From Candidatus Heimdallarchaeota archaeon (GTDB taxonomy: Archaea; Asgardarchaeota; Heimdallarchaeia; JABLTI01), in NCBI GenBank assembly GCA_019056785.1, contig DXJV01000035.1, positions 1 through 20,630 of the forward strand: a DNA stretch of 20,630 bases. The letters are read 5' to 3'. The notes under the pieces are model-generated. The model did not search any database, had not been told where the DNA came from, and saw only the letters and a list, made by a program, of their open reading frames with translations. Below, piece after piece: positions 714 through 10,800 of the stretch; the stretch's first letter is position 1, and the number at the start of each line of letters is the position of its first letter. A program made the translations under genes and the position numbers.

Positions 714-3128
714 ATGAAATGCCCGTATTGCGGAAGCCCCAACACTCGTGTGATAGACAAAAGGCTATCAGAGGACATGAAATACAATAGGCGACGCAGA
801 GAATGTATGCAATGTAAAAAACGATTTACAACCTATGAGCGGGTTGAGGATATAAAACTAACAGTAGTAAAGAAAGACAAACGTCGGGAGCCATTCGATC
901 GAGAAAAGATCAAGCGAGGAATACAAAAGGCTTGCGAAAAACGGCCGATAAGTATCGAAGAAATCGATGAGATTGTTGACGAGATTGAGGGCGAGCTCCG
1001 GCAATATGACGAGGTTGAGATAGATTCCCAGGTTATCGGGGAACTTATTATGGAGAAACTTCGGGAGCTGGATGAAGTTGCCTATATTCGTTTTGCATCG
1101 GTCTATCGACGGTTTACAGACATTGCCTCCTTTATGAAAGAGCTTGAAAAGTTGAAAGTTGTGAAGGAAGTCAGTGTCAAAGGGCACGACTCGACTGAGC
1201 TCCTCTTGATGGTTGCCGGCGACACCCGAGAAGAAATTTCCAGCTGGGATAAATCAAAGATAACTCAAGCATTAATGCGCGAAGCGGGATTGCCAAAAGT
1301 TGAAGCTGAAATAATTGCTAATGAGGTTGAGCGTAAAATCTTTGCCTCGGGCATTCAAACCATCTCTGTGGATTTGATTCGTAGCCTAGTTGATAATGAA
1401 TTGTTTGTACGGGGATATGATACCAAGTTACAACAACAAAGGATTTTGGGTATTCCTACCTTCGACCTCAAACAATTGATACTTTCCAAGAGCAAAGAGA
1501 ACAGCAATGTTGTTGCCAACAATCCCGAAGCGGTTAATCTTGCCATTGCTGAAACTATCTTGAAGAAGTATGCACTTCAAGAGCTCTTCAGTCCTGAAGT
1601 GGCAAATGCTCATCGTAAAGGGCGCATTTATCTCCATGATCTCGGTTTCCCGGTGCGAGTCTATTGTTCCGCTCATAGTTTAGAATATATTAAGAAGTAT
1701 GGTTTGAAACTCTTGAATCTTTCAACCATTTCCCGCCCAGCAAATCATGCCGATACTCTTACGGGACATCTTAATACTTTCCTAGCATCCATGCAAGCCT
1801 ATTATGCAGGTGCGTTGGGTCTTGCTTATCTTAATATCTTTTATGCCCCCTATTTTGTTGGGGTGCCTTACAAACAGATCAAGCAAGAAGCACAAAGGTT
1901 GATTTATTCTTGTAGCCAAAATGCCTTCTCCCGTGGTGGGCAGACATTATTCGTGGACTTCAACATCCATCTTGGAATTCCCAATTATCTCCGGGACATT
2001 CCAGCCATTGGACCTGGTGGAAAGTACACCGGTAAAACCTATGCCCATTATGAAAAAGAAGCGCAGCTGTTTGCCAAGGCGCTAATGGAAGTTTGGATGG
2101 AAGGCGACGCTCAAGGAAAAGTCTTCCCCTTCCCGAAGTTTGACTTGCATGTGGATCAGACGAGCTTTGATGACCCCGAGCAGTTCAAGCTCTTACAGTA
2201 TGCTTGTAAGGTTGCTTCTGAAAATGGTTCCACTTACTTTATCTTTGACCGGGACGAGGTCAACTTGTCCATGTGTTGCAGACTAAAAACTACCATTCGA
2301 GACACCTATATGATTGAACACCCAGAAAGCATGCGCTATTGTGGTTTCCAAAACGTGAGTATTAACTTGCCACAGGCAGCTTATCGTGCTGGGAAAGGTA
2401 ATATCAATGACTGTATCAGTCAAATAAAAGAAGCAATGGACATTGCTATGGAAGCACATCTCCAAAAGAAAGCTTTTATCCACAAATTGATGACCACTGA
2501 AAACGGCACCCTCTGGCAGATAGGCAAAACCGCCGAAGACGGGCGCCCTTATGTGGATCTTGAAAAAGCGACCTATATTATTGGCGTCATCGGTCTCAAC
2601 GAATGTGTTCAATATCTTATCGATGAAGAGCTTCATGAGAGTGAAGAAGCCTACAAATTGGGTTTGCGAATCATTGCTGCCATGAATCTTAAAGCAAAAG
2701 AGTTGGAGAAAAAGTATGGCTTGAAAGTCACTCTCGAGGAAACTCCAGGAGAAAGCGCGCCATACAAATTTGCTCGCACAGACATTCGTGAATTTCCAGA
2801 GAGCATCCATTACGTAAAGGGTGACCTGGACACCGGAGCAATTTACTATTCCAACAGTGCGCACTTTGCTGCAGAAGCACCAATTGATATTATTGAACGG
2901 ATCACTAAACAAGGACGATTTAATACTTTAATTGAAAGTGGCTCTATTACCCACATCTTTATTGGTGAGCAAAAAATCGATCCTGCATCCATCCTCAATC
3001 TTGTGAAGAAGAGCTGGCTTCATACTCAAAGTGCACAAATTGTCTTCTCACCGGAATTCACGATTTGTAGAGATTGTGGAAAGGTAAGTCGGGGATATGG
3101 CAGAGCCATGAGTGAAATGGCTCAGTAA
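714..3128 (+). CDS. nrdR-nrdD: NrdR repressor fused to class III (anaerobic) ribonucleoside-triphosphate reductase catalytic subunit; lacks the C-terminal glycyl-radical loop
   Basis: aa 1-~150 are a full NrdR (MKCPYCG..TRVIDKR..RRRRECxxCKKRFTTYE, VVKKD..REPFDREK ATP-cone, LDEVAYIRFASVYRRF). A second ATP-cone follows at ~aa165-235. NrdD core motifs: AHxKGRIYLHDL, VYCSAH, RGGQTLF, FPFPK, SMCCRL, SINLP, IGVIGLNE, EETPGES, YYSNS, GSITH, ending FTICRDCG. RBS aggtga at 701-706. Confidence 0.93.
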   Translation: MKCPYCGSPNTRVIDKRLSEDMKYNRRRRECMQCKKRFTTYERVEDIKLTVVKKDKRREPFDREKIKRGIQKACEKRPISIEEIDEIVDEIEGELRQYDEVEIDSQVIGELIMEKLRELDEVAYIRFASVYRRFTDIASFMKELEKLKVVKEVSVKGHDSTELLLMVAGDTREEISSWDKSKITQALMREAGLPKVEAEIIANEVERKIFASGIQTISVDLIRSLVDNELFVRGYDTKLQQQRILGIPTFDLKQLILSKSKENSNVVANNPEAVNLAIAETILKKYALQELFSPEVANAHRKGRIYLHDLGFPVRVYCSAHSLEYIKKYGLKLLNLSTISRPANHADTLTGHLNTFLASMQAYYAGALGLAYLNIFYAPYFVGVPYKQIKQEAQRLIYSCSQNAFSRGGQTLFVDFNIHLGIPNYLRDIPAIGPGGKYTGKTYAHYEKEAQLFAKALMEVWMEGDAQGKVFPFPKFDLHVDQTSFDDPEQFKLLQYACKVASENGSTYFIFDRDEVNLSMCCRLKTTIRDTYMIEHPESMRYCGFQNVSINLPQAAYRAGKGNINDCISQIKEAMDIAMEAHLQKKAFIHKLMTTENGTLWQIGKTAEDGRPYVDLEKATYIIGVIGLNECVQYLIDEELHESEEAYKLGLRIIAAMNLKAKELEKKYGLKVTLEETPGESAPYKFARTDIREFPESIHYVKGDLDTGAIYYSNSAHFAAEAPIDIIERITKQGRFNTLIESGSITHIFIGEQKIDPASILNLVKKSWLHTQSAQIVFSPEFTICRDCGKVSRGYGRAMSEMAQ

Positions 3129-3174
3129 TTGAGTGGGAAAAAATCTAACAGAACTAATAGAGGAATAAACCAAA

Positions 3175-3417
3175 ATGGCTAAAATCGAACCCGAACCGAG
3201 AAAAATAACAGAATTAGAAACAACAATAGAAGCAAAAGAAAGTCACAACGCAGGTGATCAGCTGAAACCACGCTGTCCATACTGTGGCTCTGAAAATGTC
3301 TACGGTATGAGTAGAGTTGTGGGCTATTTCAGTATCATTGAAAATTGGAATCGCTCTAAAAAAGCCGAGTTAAAGAGAAGGCAACAAGGCAATTATTGGT
3401 TTGACAACAAGTCCTAA
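3175..3417 (+). CDS. Stand-alone NrdD C-terminal glycyl-radical/Zn-ribbon subunit
   Basis: CPYCGSENVYGMSRVVGYFSIIENWNRSKKAELKRR is the canonical NrdD C-terminus (CxxC, RxxGY with radical Gly50 at 3322-3324, WNxxKxxE). It has its own RBS gagga at 3160-3164 and an in-frame TAA at 3166-3168 upstream. Confidence 0.9.
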   Translation: MAKIEPEPRKITELETTIEAKESHNAGDQLKPRCPYCGSENVYGMSRVVGYFSIIENWNRSKKAELKRRQQGNYWFDNKS

Positions 3418-3515: not shown

Positions 3516-3605
3516 CAACAACAAATTTAAATAGTGATGTTTCCTCAAAGAATATGCCATACAAGATGTAGTGGGTAGCACTGAAAAAAACACTAGAACT
3601 GGTGG
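3516..3605 (+). promoter_or_regulatory. Promoter of redoxin-nrdG: BRE/TATA plus tandem NrdR boxes
   Basis: caacaa (3516-3521), TTTAAATA (3526-3533), box1 atacaagatgtagtgg (3559-3574, identical to 616-631), box2 acactagaactggtgg (3590-3605). Same 33-bp TATA-to-box1 and 31-bp box-to-box offsets as the first promoter. Confidence 0.8.
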
Positions 3606-3659
3606 TTACCTTCACTTATTCACTTTACTCTAAAAATATTCATGAAAAACGAGGGAAAA

Positions 3660-3926
3660 ATGATGACAACGAAATTAAAAATCTTCACAAAAAAAGATTG
3701 CCCGAATTGCCCCTTGGCAAAAAAGATTGGAAAAAAATTGGAAGGCCAGGGTGCAAATATCGAATGGTTTGATTTAGATGAGGAGATAGGTTTAACCGAA
3801 GGAGTCTACTTCGATGTAATGGCGACTCCAACATTAATCCTCACTGATGAAAACGATAATGAACTTCTTGCGTGGCGTGGAGAAGTGCCACCCATTGAAA
3901 CATTACAAAAAGAATTAAAACTGTAA
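3660..3926 (+). CDS. NrdH/glutaredoxin-like thioredoxin-fold protein (CPNC), likely RNR reductant
   Basis: KIFTKKDCPNCP...VMATPTLIL (CxxC plus the cis-Pro TP motif). RBS gaggg at 3651-3655 favours ATG 3660 or 3663 over 3642. Confidence 0.82.
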   Translation: MMTTKLKIFTKKDCPNCPLAKKIGKKLEGQGANIEWFDLDEEIGLTEGVYFDVMATPTLILTDENDNELLAWRGEVPPIETLQKELKL

Positions 3927-3942
3927 GAGATGAAATAGACGC

Positions 3943-4647
3943 TTGCCAGACCTAGAAATTAAAGGCTATAGACAATCATCATTAATTGAATGGCCGGGAT
4001 TGTTAGTTGACAGTATCTTTCTTGCGGGATGTGATTTCCGCTGCGGGTACTGCCACAATCCTGATTTAATAACTGTTGACAAAGTAGAGAGCTATGACGT
4101 CAATGAAGTATTAGCAGAAATAGATAATAGAGCTAAAACAAAATGGCTGGATGGCATTTCCATCACTGGTGGAGAGCCAACCCTCAGTAAACGCTTGCCA
4201 GAGTTTCTCAGCATCCTTAAAAAGATGGGATTAAAAACAAAAATAGATACTAATGGGCATCATCCTGCTGTAGTGAAACGATTGCTTGATGAAGGACTAC
4301 TTGACTATATTGCTATGGATGTAAAAGCCACCCCTGAGAAATATCCTTTAGCTGTGAATATAAAAGTCGACTTGAAGAAAATAAGGAAAACCATTTCTTT
4401 AATTATTAATTCCGGCATTGAACATGAGTTCCGAACGACTGTTGTTCCGACCATCGTTGAGCCTGAAATGGACATTCCTATTATCGCAGAGATGATTACA
4501 GGGGCGAAAAGATATTACTTGCAACAATTCCGACCAATACGCTGTCTTGATAAAAAATTCGAATCTTTAGAACCCTATTCCTTAACACGATTGGAAGCCG
4601 CCTGGAAGAAAGTAAAAGACAAATTTGAAGTCTGTGAGATCCGTTAG
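3943..4647 (+). CDS. nrdG: Anaerobic RNR activating enzyme (radical SAM, NrdG2-type)
   Basis: SLIEWPG, GCDFRCGYCHNP (CxxxCxxC), ITGGEPT, KIDTNG, DYIAMDVK, EFRTTVVP, LQQF; lies next to nrdD. TTG start. Confidence 0.92.
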   Translation: MPDLEIKGYRQSSLIEWPGLLVDSIFLAGCDFRCGYCHNPDLITVDKVESYDVNEVLAEIDNRAKTKWLDGISITGGEPTLSKRLPEFLSILKKMGLKTKIDTNGHHPAVVKRLLDEGLLDYIAMDVKATPEKYPLAVNIKVDLKKIRKTISLIINSGIEHEFRTTVVPTIVEPEMDIPIIAEMITGAKRYYLQQFRPIRCLDKKFESLEPYSLTRLEAAWKKVKDKFEVCEIR

Positions 4648-4761: not shown

Positions 4762-6606
4762 GTGACTAAAATTAAACAATTAAAACACAATGGCATATTA
4801 GTTGTCCGCTACGAGCCAAAGGGACTTTCAATTACAATCAAAGGTAAACCTCATAAATTGACGCCGAAGCAAGAGGAAATGGCTCTTGCTTGGGTGAGAA
4901 AACTTTCAACTCCTTATGTTGAGGACCCGGTGTTTTGCAAGAACTTTTTCGAGGATTTCAGTAAAGAGTTAGGTATTGAGGGGCTTACTGACGAAGATAT
5001 CGATTTTTCAGAAGTTATTGATTATGTTGAAAGAGAGCGCCAAAAGAAAGAAGCAATGAGCAAAGAAGAGAAGAAAGCCGCTCGGGAAGCGCGCAAGAAA
5101 AAACGCGAAGAATTGAAAGCTCATTATGGAACTGCAATCCTCGATGGACAAGAAGTTGAAATCTCGAATTGGACTGCTGAACCTAGTAGTATTTTTATGG
5201 GGCGCGGTGAACACCCCTTGCGTGGCCGTTGGAAAGAAGGACCAACTGAAAAAGACATTACGCTTAATTTAAGTCCGGATGCTCCTGTGCCTGAAGGAGA
5301 TTGGAAAGAAATTGTTTGGAATCCTGACTGTTTGTGGGTTGCCAAATGGGAGGATAAATTAACAGGAAAGACAAAATACGTTTGGCTTTCAGATAGTACA
5401 CCCATTAAACAGAACCGAGAAATCGAGAAATATGATAAGGCGCGAAAAGTTGGCGATAACCTCAAGAAAATTCGAAAAGCAATCCTCGAAGGGATAAAGT
5501 CTCCGGATAAACGAACACGCAAAGTTGCGGCAGCATGTTATATTATTGATAAAATTAACATGCGTGTCGGAGATGAGAAAGATGAAGATGAAGCTGATAC
5601 TGTTGGCGCTACGACTCTAAGACCTGAGCACATAAAAATTGATGGAAACAAGGTGACGTTCCATTTTCTTGGGAAAGATTCGGTCGAATGGCATAAAGAA
5701 GCAGTATTTCCAGATGAAGTAATTGCTGTGTTACGAGAGTTAATTGAAGAAGCTAAACAGAGCCCAGATGATAAGCCTCAAATTTTTTCAGATGTTGGGA
5801 GTAGGCATGTTAATGCTTTTCTGGGCGAAATTGTTGATGGCTTAACAGCAAAAGTCTTTCGTACATATCATGCTTCGAACGTCGTTCGACAAGCTCTTGA
5901 TGAAAGTGATGTCTCAGAGACTGACCCTGATTTTGTGAAAAAAGAGGCTGCAGTAATGGCAAACCGTGAAGCGGCAATTATCTGCAATCATATGAAACAA
6001 GAGCCAAAGAATTTTGAAAATAGATTACAGCGCTTCAGAGAACGAAAATTGAAGGCCAAGGAACGGATCGAAAAAGCCATTGCAAACCGGCAACAGAGAG
6101 AAGCCCGATTAGTGGAGTTAAAAGAAAAGTTACAGGAACGGAAAGCCCAACTTAAAGAGCAAGAATCATTGTTAGCTCAAAGAAAAGCAGACTTGCTTGA
6201 GCTCAAGAGCCTTCCCAAACCTGACTCGGCAAAGGAGCAAGCACGGTTGAAAAAAGCAATTGAACGGGCGAAAAAGAAGGTGGAAACCCAAAAGAAACGA
6301 GTGGAAAGTGCCAAGAAGAGAATTGAAACGGTGAAAGGACAAATAGACCGGGCGAAGAACAGTCTTGGTACCGCCAAAGAGCGGATCTACAAGGCCGAAC
6401 TGGCGCTTCGGAAAATTGAATCTCAAGAGCGGATTAGTAAAAAAACGAAGCGTCTTAACCTCGGGACAAGTCTGAAATCGTATATTGACCCCCGTATTTA
6501 TTACAATTGGGGAAAAGAAGTTGATTATAATTGGCGAGATTTCTATTCAAAAACCCTTCAGAAGAAATTTTCTTGGTTAGAAAGAGGAGAAAACAATAAA
6601 GAATAA
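4762..6606 (+). CDS. DNA topoisomerase IB (archaeal, eukaryote-like long form)
   Basis: LKHNG, FMGRGEHPLRGRWK, KYDKAR, RVGDEKDEDEADTVG, FLGKDS, GLTAKVFRTYHAS, ANR..AIICNH, a coiled-coil linker, and NLGTSLKSYIDPR with the catalytic Tyr at 6481-6483. GTG start after gaggttga. Confidence 0.95.
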   Translation: MTKIKQLKHNGILVVRYEPKGLSITIKGKPHKLTPKQEEMALAWVRKLSTPYVEDPVFCKNFFEDFSKELGIEGLTDEDIDFSEVIDYVERERQKKEAMSKEEKKAAREARKKKREELKAHYGTAILDGQEVEISNWTAEPSSIFMGRGEHPLRGRWKEGPTEKDITLNLSPDAPVPEGDWKEIVWNPDCLWVAKWEDKLTGKTKYVWLSDSTPIKQNREIEKYDKARKVGDNLKKIRKAILEGIKSPDKRTRKVAAACYIIDKINMRVGDEKDEDEADTVGATTLRPEHIKIDGNKVTFHFLGKDSVEWHKEAVFPDEVIAVLRELIEEAKQSPDDKPQIFSDVGSRHVNAFLGEIVDGLTAKVFRTYHASNVVRQALDESDVSETDPDFVKKEAAVMANREAAIICNHMKQEPKNFENRLQRFRERKLKAKERIEKAIANRQQREARLVELKEKLQERKAQLKEQESLLAQRKADLLELKSLPKPDSAKEQARLKKAIERAKKKVETQKKRVESAKKRIETVKGQIDRAKNSLGTAKERIYKAELALRKIESQERISKKTKRLNLGTSLKSYIDPRIYYNWGKEVDYNWRDFYSKTLQKKFSWLERGENNKE

Positions 6607-9040: not shown

Positions 9041-9928
9041 ATGAAAGAACTAGCAATAGTAACAGATGGCGTTTGTGACCTTACAAACGAAATAATCGAA
9101 AAATATGGAATTGAAACCATTCCTTACCGTATTCTTTTTGGGCAAGAAACCTATCGCGTTTGGCACAACGATAAATTTACTATCAGCCTGGAAGAATTCT
9201 GTTCGAAGCTTGCAACAACCTCAAAAGAGACTCTCCCCAGAACTTCTCTCCCTTCACCGGCGGAGTTTAAGCAGGCTTTTGATGAAGCCCTTAAAAGCGC
9301 TCAAAATGTTATTGCAGTCCTTCTTACTTCAGGAATGTCTGGTGCCGTTCAAACAGCCCAAATGGTCGTCAAAAATTTCTACAATAATGGCAATGTCACT
9401 ATTTTCGATTCTCAGCAAACGATGACGGGAACCGGCATCCAAGCTTTGGAAGCAGCTAAAATGGTTGCAGATGGTAAGAGTAAAAGTGAGATTTTAAATC
9501 GTTTGGAAGCCCTTCAACTAAGGGTTCGTACTCTCTTGGTGATGAATGACCTAGATTATCTCGAGAAACAAGGACGTCTGGGTCCCATTGAGAACATCCG
9601 TAAAAAGAATCCCGATCTTATTCCTGCAATTCATATGAAAGATGGCATATTACATCCATTGACCATTTTCCAAAATGAGGATGACTTGATTACCAGATTT
9701 GAAAATTTTGCAAAGAAAATTGCACAGCAGAATGAAACCGGTGATATCTTTCTCACACATATTAATCATCAAAAAGTAACCAAAATTATTTACGATATTC
9801 TTGTTGATTCAGCTCTTGATGGAACAACTATCTACTATTATCCTGCTAGCGCTATTCTCGGTGTTTATTCAGGCCCCCATTCCATTGGTCTAAGTTATAT
9901 TGGGAATTTTGATAGTAGCTGGTTGTAG
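9041..9928 (+). CDS. DegV/FakB family fatty-acid-binding protein
   Basis: AIVTDGVCDL, PRTSLPS, LTSGMSG, IFDSQ, LDYLEKQGRL, ILGVYSGP. Confidence 0.9.
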   Translation: MKELAIVTDGVCDLTNEIIEKYGIETIPYRILFGQETYRVWHNDKFTISLEEFCSKLATTSKETLPRTSLPSPAEFKQAFDEALKSAQNVIAVLLTSGMSGAVQTAQMVVKNFYNNGNVTIFDSQQTMTGTGIQALEAAKMVADGKSKSEILNRLEALQLRVRTLLVMNDLDYLEKQGRLGPIENIRKKNPDLIPAIHMKDGILHPLTIFQNEDDLITRFENFAKKIAQQNETGDIFLTHINHQKVTKIIYDILVDSALDGTTIYYYPASAILGVYSGPHSIGLSYIGNFDSSWL

Positions 9929-9957: not shown

Positions 9958-10683
9958 TTAATTTTTGAATTTCTGTTCGCCTTTCTCAGCGATTTTCCAT
10001 GCAGCTGATTTGCTTTTCAACTTAATAGTATGGAGCATTCGAACAACCAATCCTAGTCCAAGGATAAAAATACTTAATGCTGCTTTTAATTGGAGAAAAG
10101 TTTCATTTAGAATTAAGGGGTTTTGCGGTAAGAAGTTCCATGGCGGTACAAAAGGGATTAGTGCCATTGCAATCACATCTAGCAATGCTACGATAAAAGA
10201 TGCTATTCTAACTGTAAATTTCTTTGATGCCATCAATAATGTTATCAAAATGACATGAATCAGGAATACCAAAGGATTGAGATAAATCAAAACCCCCATA
10301 AACACCCCTAATCCTTGTCCACCATTAAATTTTAGGAAGACAGAGTAGCTGTGACCAATAGCACAAAAGAGTGGTCCGAGTAAACATACAAAGGTATGCC
10401 AGAAATTGTTTGGCCCTTGAGAGCTAAAATGCTCGAGCGAAAAAATGTGATCTATAAGAGCTATAACGACTGTTCCTTTGAAGAAGTCGAGTAGCATTAT
10501 TGGAACGCCTAGCAGCATACCATAAGTTAAGATAGCATTCATCCCGCCGGGATTCCCTACATTATGTTTACGTAAGTCAATTCCTTTGGCAAGTTTTCCC
10601 AGCCAGATTGAAAAGGGAATTGACCCTATAACATAGGAACCCATTAATGCCAATATCATCCATAAATAATCTATTACTGCCAT
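9958..10683 (-). CDS. plsY: PlsY-family glycerol-3-phosphate acyltransferase-like membrane protein (divergent)
   Basis: SYVIGSIPF, DLRK..VGNPGGMN, LDFFKG, IGHSYSVFLKFNGGQG. Probable start is MAVIDYL at 10683 (the ORF extends to 10770). Confidence 0.8.
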   Translation of the reverse strand: MAVIDYLWMILALMGSYVIGSIPFSIWLGKLAKGIDLRKHNVGNPGGMNAILTYGMLLGVPIMLLDFFKGTVVIALIDHIFSLEHFSSQGPNNFWHTFVCLLGPLFCAIGHSYSVFLKFNGGQGLGVFMGVLIYLNPLVFLIHVILITLLMASKKFTVRIASFIVALLDVIAMALIPFVPPWNFLPQNPLILNETFLQLKAALSIFILGLGLVVRMLHTIKLKSKSAAWKIAEKGEQKFKN

Positions 10684-10800
10684 AATTTTCACATCGATGG
10701 AAATTGATAGGAATATTATTTTTATTCGAAAAAACAGTTCTTCCTTCTTAATTCTTTTGTAGTTAATCAATATTTGAGAAAGAAAATTGTTGTGTTTGCT

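Follow-up and report, generated by a model that had tools for sequence, protein, structure and literature searches.

A predicted self-repressing class III ribonucleotide reductase: NrdR as the N-terminal module of NrdD in a Heimdallarchaeota genome and related archaeal loci

Introduction

Can an enzyme that supplies the cell with deoxyribonucleoside triphosphates (dNTPs) also be the repressor of its own gene? This question is raised by a gene at positions 714–3128 (+) of a 20,630-nucleotide stretch of DNA from Candidatus Heimdallarchaeota archaeon (assembly GCA_019056785.1, contig DXJV01000035.1, positions 1–20,630; hereafter the window), in which the transcriptional repressor NrdR is joined in one reading frame to NrdD, the catalytic subunit of class III ribonucleotide reductase (RNR). 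Current NrdR papers treat the repressor as bacterial and as rare or absent in archaea. A preliminary description of the window proposed that the enzyme may be its own transcription factor, that two ATP-cones might couple control of its activity to DNA binding, and knew of no characterisation of the architecture.

Judging from sequence and comparative evidence, we think it reasonably probable that the intact fusion is both the organism's only RNR catalytic subunit, of class III, and its own NrdR-type repressor. We regard self-repression as well supported because NrdR and NrdD share one frame, the DNA-contact residues are intact, the predicted operators are specific to RNR promoters, no free NrdR was found, and this is the sole RNR found. 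The earlier proposal of an enzyme acting as its own transcription factor is upheld by the complete NrdR, the kept contact residues, the promoter boxes and our finding no free NrdR in the genome, and has to be given up in its coupling of two cones.

Results and discussion

A complete NrdR stands in frame with an NrdD body

Evaluating the translated gene against Pfam and NCBIfam, we found an open reading frame (ORF) of 804 amino acids with no internal stop, comprising a full NrdR, a second ATP-cone and NrdD, just as the preliminary description had read it. The NrdR equivalog TIGR00244 is matched over positions 1–147 of its 147 at 200.7 bits (cut-off 124.65), and the NrdD equivalog TIGR02487 at 354 bits (cut-off 326). 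The N-terminal zinc ribbon (amino acids 1–42; 714–839, +) matches PF22811 (Zn_ribbon_NrdR) at 63 bits over 42 of 42 model positions and is followed by an NrdR-type ATP-cone with the NrdR C-terminal helix (amino acids 50–147; 861–1154, +), which gives a strong and complete match to PF03477 (91.7 bits, profile positions 2–87 of 88). The RRRR motif (R26–R29) and AYIRFASVY are both present. The top solved-structure matches of the NrdR module are E. coli NrdR entries at roughly 50% identity and E values of ~1e-39 to 1e-40 (for 9FZF, E = 8.5e-40), and the S. coelicolor NrdR structure is also matched by the fusion's N-terminus.

The junction and the inter-cone linker that follow (KVVKEVSVKGHDSTELLLMV...; 1155–1235, +) are NrdD-derived, aligning with the stretch that separates the two cones of bacterial NrdD, and lead into a second, degenerate ATP-cone (amino acids 175–236; 1236–1421, +). 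This cone reaches 27.5 bits against a PF03477 cut-off of 25.8 and, because it covers only profile positions 10–73 of 88, lacks the nucleotide-binding N-terminal hairpin. The remainder of the chain is the NrdD catalytic core (amino acids 262–793; 1497–3092, +; PF13597, 377 bits), which ends at the first CxxC of the C-terminal zinc site, with the NrdD body stopping at TIGR02487 position 537 of 581. Two candidate catalytic cysteine motifs are kept within it: YCSAH, which aligns with 'NCC' of T4 and 'YCF' of T. maritima (the equivalent of T4 C79), and SMCCRL, whose aligned counterparts are 'MGCRS' in T4 and 'SCCRL' in T. maritima (the equivalent of T4 C290).

The cryo-electron microscopy structure of S. 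coelicolor NrdR assigns backbone contacts to R12, R26–29 and R37 and base reading to D15 and R17 (PMC9110341), and the fusion carries R12, D15, R17, R26–R29 and R37 at these very residue numbers. Comparing 17 fusions, that is, the gene at 714–3128 and 16 related archaeal loci, we found the zinc cysteines C3/C6 and C31/C34 (two CxxC pairs) to be invariant and the contact residues to be kept with conservative changes only: K12 in DPANN, E15 at two loci and K26 at a single locus. The NrdR part of the window's gene is complete and retains every DNA-contact residue.

The likeness to free NrdR (E. coli 9FZF, 9FVR, 9FXK and 9GEX; S. coelicolor 7P37 and 7P3F) thus takes in a ribbon and ATP-cone of equal length (amino acids 1–147), identical DNA-contact residues, and paired palindromic boxes 31–32 bp apart at RNR promoters. 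The difference is that free NrdR is a separate protein of 150–200 amino acids, whereas the NrdR of the fusion is covalently joined to the enzyme it would regulate; in place of the free-standing form of ~140–220 amino acids typical of NrdR, all 17 loci have an in-frame fusion with NrdD.

The fusion is authentic and is the usual form in an archaeal clade

The gene comes from a metagenome-assembled genome (MAG) of low coverage (word depth ~5–10) and its NrdD appears C-terminally truncated, as would be expected of a pseudogene in decay or of a fusion created by faulty assembly or sequencing. Against this, independently assembled contigs from four public metagenome runs, belonging to four studies, are identical and without an indel over 714–3417, with indels at 693 and 3437 only, both intergenic. 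The same fusion, with the same split behind NrdD, recurs in 16 other assemblies, databases hold hundreds of such fusion proteins under enzyme names, the catalytic cysteines are kept, and a search of 12 genomes of the family found no other RNR. The four-run contigs and the 16 loci together rule out a frameshift or assembly error at the tail split or at the NrdR/NrdD junction, the latter being the error that the preliminary description had wished to see excluded, and we hold an artefact or a decaying gene to be hardly credible.

To search for relatives, we compared amino acids 1–260 with 5.8 billion proteins, keeping NrdD-sized proteins only, which gave 317 matches. The search across genomes for this architecture that had been suggested earlier came out in its favour, with PF22811, PF03477 and PF13597 all carried by 119 of the best 120 of the 317 relatives. 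Their source names include Heimdallarchaeota, 'Asgard group', Bathyarchaeia, Aenigmatarchaeota, Micrarchaeota and Woesearchaeota, among others, and a few JGI records are already titled 'anaerobic ribonucleoside-triphosphate reductase/transcriptional regulator NrdR'. A locus comparison of 80 genomic loci, fetched with amino acids 150–450 as query, revealed NrdR and NrdD in one frame in all 16 of the Heimdall-type, Nanohalarchaeota and Aenigmatarchaeota loci among them. We read the NrdR–NrdD fusion as the standard form across an archaeal clade and not as a rarity, and NrdR as the normal N-terminus of the sole RNR in that whole clade, contrary to the picture drawn in current papers. The earlier statement that the architecture had not been characterised is accurate in that our full-text literature search, whose coverage did not extend to subscription journals, found no description of an NrdR–NrdD fusion; it needs tempering in that the architecture is not rare and that some JGI records name NrdD and NrdR together.

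Among 301 Asgardarchaeota genomes sampled, only the window's family has the full fusion, in 8 of the 10 genomes sampled there and in the window's own genome. Two genomes outside the family have a free NrdR-like ORF, and the remaining matches extend over no more than the inner-cone region of ORFs of NrdD size. This patchy distribution within the phylum would fit a gene gained by transfer better than one of old Asgard descent.

As a separate observation on the relatives, some fused homologues of 1320–1380 amino acids (P0059, P0060 and P0072) carry intein/LAGLIDADG domains (PF14528, PF14890) inside the fusion.

NrdR took the place of the outer cone of NrdD

The closest unfused relatives are in bacterial MAGs (Planctomycetota, Omnitrophota, Elusimicrobiota, Atribacterota, Clostridia), with NrdD cores 52–60% identical to that of the fusion, and here a separate nrdR lies directly 5′ of an nrdD that encodes two cones; in many cases the two genes overlap or are only a few bases apart. 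These bacterial nrdR–nrdD operons (L018–L081) share the degenerate inner cone and the inter-cone linker with the fusion, and differ from it in making two proteins, in having an NrdD with its own canonical outer cone, and in keeping the tail within NrdD. In eight of the bacterial loci (L028, L034, L046, L061, L068, L069, L080 and L081) the two genes share a frame, and no more than one additional codon lies past the nrdR stop; with a single stop between nrdR and nrdD, these loci stand one point mutation away from a three-cone fusion.

The mere loss of the nrdR stop codon was considered as the origin of the archaeal gene and rejected, since it predicts three cones and the fusion has two, the first of them NrdR-like. 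Pairwise comparison places the two cones in different company: fusion cone 1 averages 49% identity to free bacterial NrdR cones and 21% to bacterial NrdD cone 1, and fusion cone 2 averages 49% identity to bacterial NrdD cone 2, so that cone 1 belongs with the cones of free NrdR and cone 2 with the second cone of NrdD. The NrdD inter-cone linker (L-K-V, ~10 residues, DST-E/D-L-x-L-x-V) directly follows the NrdR C-terminal helix and is of constant length in the 17 fusions. These comparisons show that the whole of NrdR, zinc ribbon and cone, replaced the canonical outer cone of NrdD and was joined at the inter-cone linker, a replacement rather than a read-through because read-through would leave three cones. 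The ancestor was an nrdR–nrdD operon with a two-cone NrdD.

A quick maximum-likelihood tree of NrdD cores gathers all 17 fused genes into one clade with full support in the Shimodaira–Hasegawa-like approximate likelihood ratio test (SH-aLRT), nested among bacterial operon-type genes; as the tree has a midpoint root only, we claim no direction of transfer between bacteria and archaea. The fused clade also holds two loci with NrdR in another frame, L016 (Woesearchaeota) and L017 (labelled Saccharibacteria). In these, NrdR lies ~200–490 nt ahead of an NrdD without cone 1, and they are either secondary re-fissions or frameshifted assemblies.

These two members of the clade, together with a hydrophilic linker (amino acids 148–165) that could be exposed, lend something to the view that the one frame gives rise to two proteins, through proteolysis of the linker or an internal start, and that fusion merely secures co-expression. 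Starting from the ATG at 1209 (M166) would require it to resemble real starts, and it does not: the start codon at 714 has a Shine–Dalgarno-like GGTGA 7 nt 5′ of it (702–706, +), whereas neither GGAGG nor GGTGA lies upstream of ATG 1209, in keeping with the earlier remark that no strong ribosome-binding site precedes it, and the position of M166 is occupied by M, L or Q in an alignment of the fusions. We therefore rejected an internal start at this codon. The linker itself is conserved in length and in its DST(E/D)LxLxV motif, inherited from the NrdD inter-cone linker, and the fusion has persisted across a deep clade. We consider two separate products unlikely.

Paired NrdR boxes mark the RNR promoters

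The promoter of the fused gene contains a TATA-box-like element, TTTATATA (583–590, +), and, 33 nt further 3′, the first of two NrdR boxes that we call operator 1 (boxes are given without strand). Box 1, ATACAAGATGTAGTGG (616–631), agrees with the bacterial consensus at 12 of 16 positions, and the centre of box 2, ACACTAGGAGTAGTAT (647–662), lies 31 bp from that of box 1, which is the canonical NrdR spacing of about three helix turns. Scanning the 2.87 Mb genome for pairs 30–33 bp apart with a position weight matrix (PWM) built from the other loci's boxes, with the window excluded, we found exactly two predicted box pairs genome-wide, both at RNR promoters (616–662 and 3559–3605). Box 1 of operator 1 is the highest-scoring single site in the genome (20.1), and the operator 1 pair scores above all of 300 shuffles, so that PWM and shuffles alike bear out the paired NrdR boxes that had been noticed in the fusion gene's own promoter.

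The second pair, operator 2 (3559–3605), consists of ATACAAGATGTAGTGG (3559–3574) and ACACTAGAACTGGTGG (3590–3605), again 31 bp apart, and is the best-scoring pair in the genome (37.0). It lies ahead of a redoxin gene (start at 3642) and nrdG (start at 3943), with a TATA-box-like element of its own, TTTAAATA (3526–3533, +), 33 nt 5′ of its first box. We observed that box 1 of operator 2 is identical to box 1 of operator 1 and that the 33-nt distance to the TATA element is the same. No second operator was found in the 16 related loci, which have the first operator and a tighter four-gene cluster, and this suggests that operator 2 came from a control region duplicated recently.

Conservation of the first operator extends across the fused loci: at a strict PWM threshold, 14 of the 17 genes are preceded by a box pair with a spacing of 31 or 32 bp. 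In 13 of the 17 loci none of the shuffled upstream regions scored as high as the real pair, and in the other four 0.3–1% of them did. The intergenic sequence around the boxes diverges between loci while the box pairs persist, and a TATA element at a similar distance is also present in the Heimdall-type loci L002–L004, L007 and L009. At archaeal promoters, a site ~33 nt past the TATA box covers the expected transcription start, and a protein bound there would block polymerase recruitment. Both predicted operators would overlie such starts, and the arrangement differs from that of free bacterial NrdR, whose boxes lie over the −10 and −35 elements, whereas those of the fusion, in an archaeal host, follow a TATA box.

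The fused gene is the only NrdR and the only RNR found

We assessed the genome and its family for other NrdR proteins and other RNRs. No TIGR00244 match beyond the fused gene was found in the genome, and no further NrdR homologue in eight other genomes of the same family, in each of which the fused gene is the sole match. With no free NrdR found, the conserved boxes would be served by the fused ribbon alone. On the enzyme side, the genome has one NrdD body only, and no class I or II RNR large subunit (PF02867) was found in 12 family genomes of 64–92% completeness, with control genomes positive. From its kept catalytic cysteines and its position as the sole RNR, the fusion is predicted to be a working enzyme.

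These results also bear on a reading in which the NrdR module has lost DNA binding and persists only as an allosteric or oligomerisation domain, the boxes being relics or bound by another factor. Such a role would suit a module that occupies the exact place of the activity-regulating cone in sister enzymes, the more so as ribbon–ribbon contacts drive tetramer formation in free NrdR (PMC9110341). It does not explain why D15, R17 and all the backbone-contact arginines are retained across Asgard and DPANN, the few substitutions given above aside, why box pairs are kept amid diverging intergenic sequence and restricted, genome-wide, to RNR promoters, or which protein would use them when no other NrdR was found in this genome or the eight family genomes. 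We judge a purely allosteric module improbable, and prefer a fusion that still binds its operators.

A single cone may govern both activity and synthesis

In the mechanism that we propose for the self-repressing fusion, the zinc ribbons would bind the paired 16-bp boxes over the predicted starts of the nrdR::nrdD–tail unit and of redoxin–nrdG. By analogy with free NrdR, binding would take place with dATP and ATP both bound in the NrdR cone, and ATP alone would leave the ribbons hidden. In the presence of dATP and ATP, cone–cone contacts would gather four ribbons and clamp the two boxes. Because free NrdR needs four ribbons per two boxes and NrdD is dimeric, it is probably two NrdD dimers, joined through their cones, that bind the DNA; free NrdR forms 12-, 8- and 4-mers, states that are not to be assumed for the fusion. 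The NrdR cone occupies the position of the activity cone and, with the inner one degenerate, is the one complete cone remaining, so that the same dATP signal would probably also switch the enzyme off. The cooperation of two cones envisaged in the preliminary description fails as it was put, the second cone being degenerate and the NrdR module substituting for the canonical outer cone, and it is probably one cone, not two, that does both jobs.

Several points weigh against this interpretation. With the genome 82.5% complete, a separate nrdR or another RNR may lie in the part that was not assembled. The second box of operator 1 agrees only modestly with the bacterial consensus (11 of 16), and the three fused loci outside the count of 14 (L021, L035 and L072) have one strong box each. 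Control of activity by the NrdR cone is something we infer, and tethering to NrdD dimers may put the tetramer geometry of free NrdR out of reach of the 92-kDa fusion.

Enzymes that repress their own operon are known as trigger enzymes, PutA, BirA and NadR among them. They are comparable to the fusion in combining catalysis and sequence-specific DNA binding in one chain, with a metabolite of the pathway as the switch, and differ from it in belonging to unrelated folds and pathways. Our literature search, with the coverage given above, found no paper on a self-repressing enzyme design for any ribonucleotide reductase. The component families are known, then, and self-repressing enzymes are a known kind; it is the RNR case for which we found no description.

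If the fusion binds its boxes, enzyme and repressor amounts would be locked at 1:1, a single nucleotide sensor would govern both the activity and the synthesis of dNTP production, and a bacterial repressor would be at work on an archaeal TATA-type promoter. It would also offer structural biologists a tethered NrdR, the free protein having been reported as highly unstable upon purification.

The glycyl-radical tail is a separate gene in several copies

The second CxxC of the zinc site and the glycyl-radical motif do not lie on NrdD's own polypeptide. Both are found in a downstream tail gene of 80 amino acids (3175–3417, +), which carries CPYC and SRVVGY, matches PF13597 over positions 507–560 and TIGR02487 over 541–580, is in a different frame from the fusion, and has GAGGA ahead of its ATG. 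Every Heimdall-type locus and most DPANN loci have the tail split off; in L072 and the bacterial relatives it is part of NrdD. Unsplit homologues (P0022, P0039 and P0056) retain the residues VSRGY.R past the first CxxC, from which we conclude that the split is a true gene fission. A candidate intron at 3084–3261 (GTAAGT after codon 790, an in-phase CAG ending at 3261) was rejected on the same ground, although its removal would give a textbook NrdD C-terminus.

Two more free tail genes, of 67 and 70 amino acids, lie on other contigs of the genome (C57, L083:1432–1635, +; C65, L085:1471–1683, −), and the genome-wide PWM scan found no box pair at either. Family genomes carry up to three tail copies, with two or three in 10 of 11 sampled relatives. 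As the NrdD body has no radical domain, the tails should at the least be obligatory subunits; a replacement role for the extra copies following damage by oxygen is speculative. The three tails of 67–80 amino acids resemble GrcA (YfiD) of the pyruvate formate-lyase system in being small, free-standing proteins with a glycyl-radical motif. The two cases differ in that GrcA rescues a pyruvate formate-lyase that has a radical domain of its own, whereas the NrdD here has none.

According to a 2026 review, only formate lyases are known to have spare-part proteins, and the matter is open for other glycyl-radical enzymes (PMC13450708); the split, multi-copy radical tail bears on this question of spare parts beyond pyruvate formate-lyase. 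Joining the two themes, one can picture an RNR in the Heimdall-type family and many DPANN in which one NrdR cone senses dATP/ATP and gates both catalysis and RNR transcription, and which carries its oxygen-labile glycyl radical on a three-copy, detachable subunit. We offer this combined picture tentatively, as less likely than not when taken whole; if true, it would provide the first exchangeable radical 'cartridge' outside pyruvate formate-lyase.

Neighbouring genes

Downstream of operator 2, a small thioredoxin-fold redoxin with a CPNC motif (3642–3926, +) gives weak Thioredoxin_2 and Glutaredoxin matches just under the cut-offs. Its place between the tail gene and nrdG is conserved in order in 15 loci, and it is the probable reductant of this NrdD. 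The nrdG-like radical S-adenosylmethionine activase follows (3943–4647, +; Radical_SAM at 81.6 bits, Fer4_12).

Directly downstream of nrdG, the window encodes a full eukaryotic-type topoisomerase IB (4762–6606, +), with Pfam matches to the N-terminal DNA-binding fragment (E = 2e-62), the catalytic core (4e-54) and the C-terminal domain (7e-17). Further along, a DegV-family fatty-acid-binding protein (9041–9928, +) adjoins a PlsY-type glycerol-3-phosphate acyltransferase (9958–10770, −), a pair of bacterial-style acyl-lipid genes in an archaeal genome.

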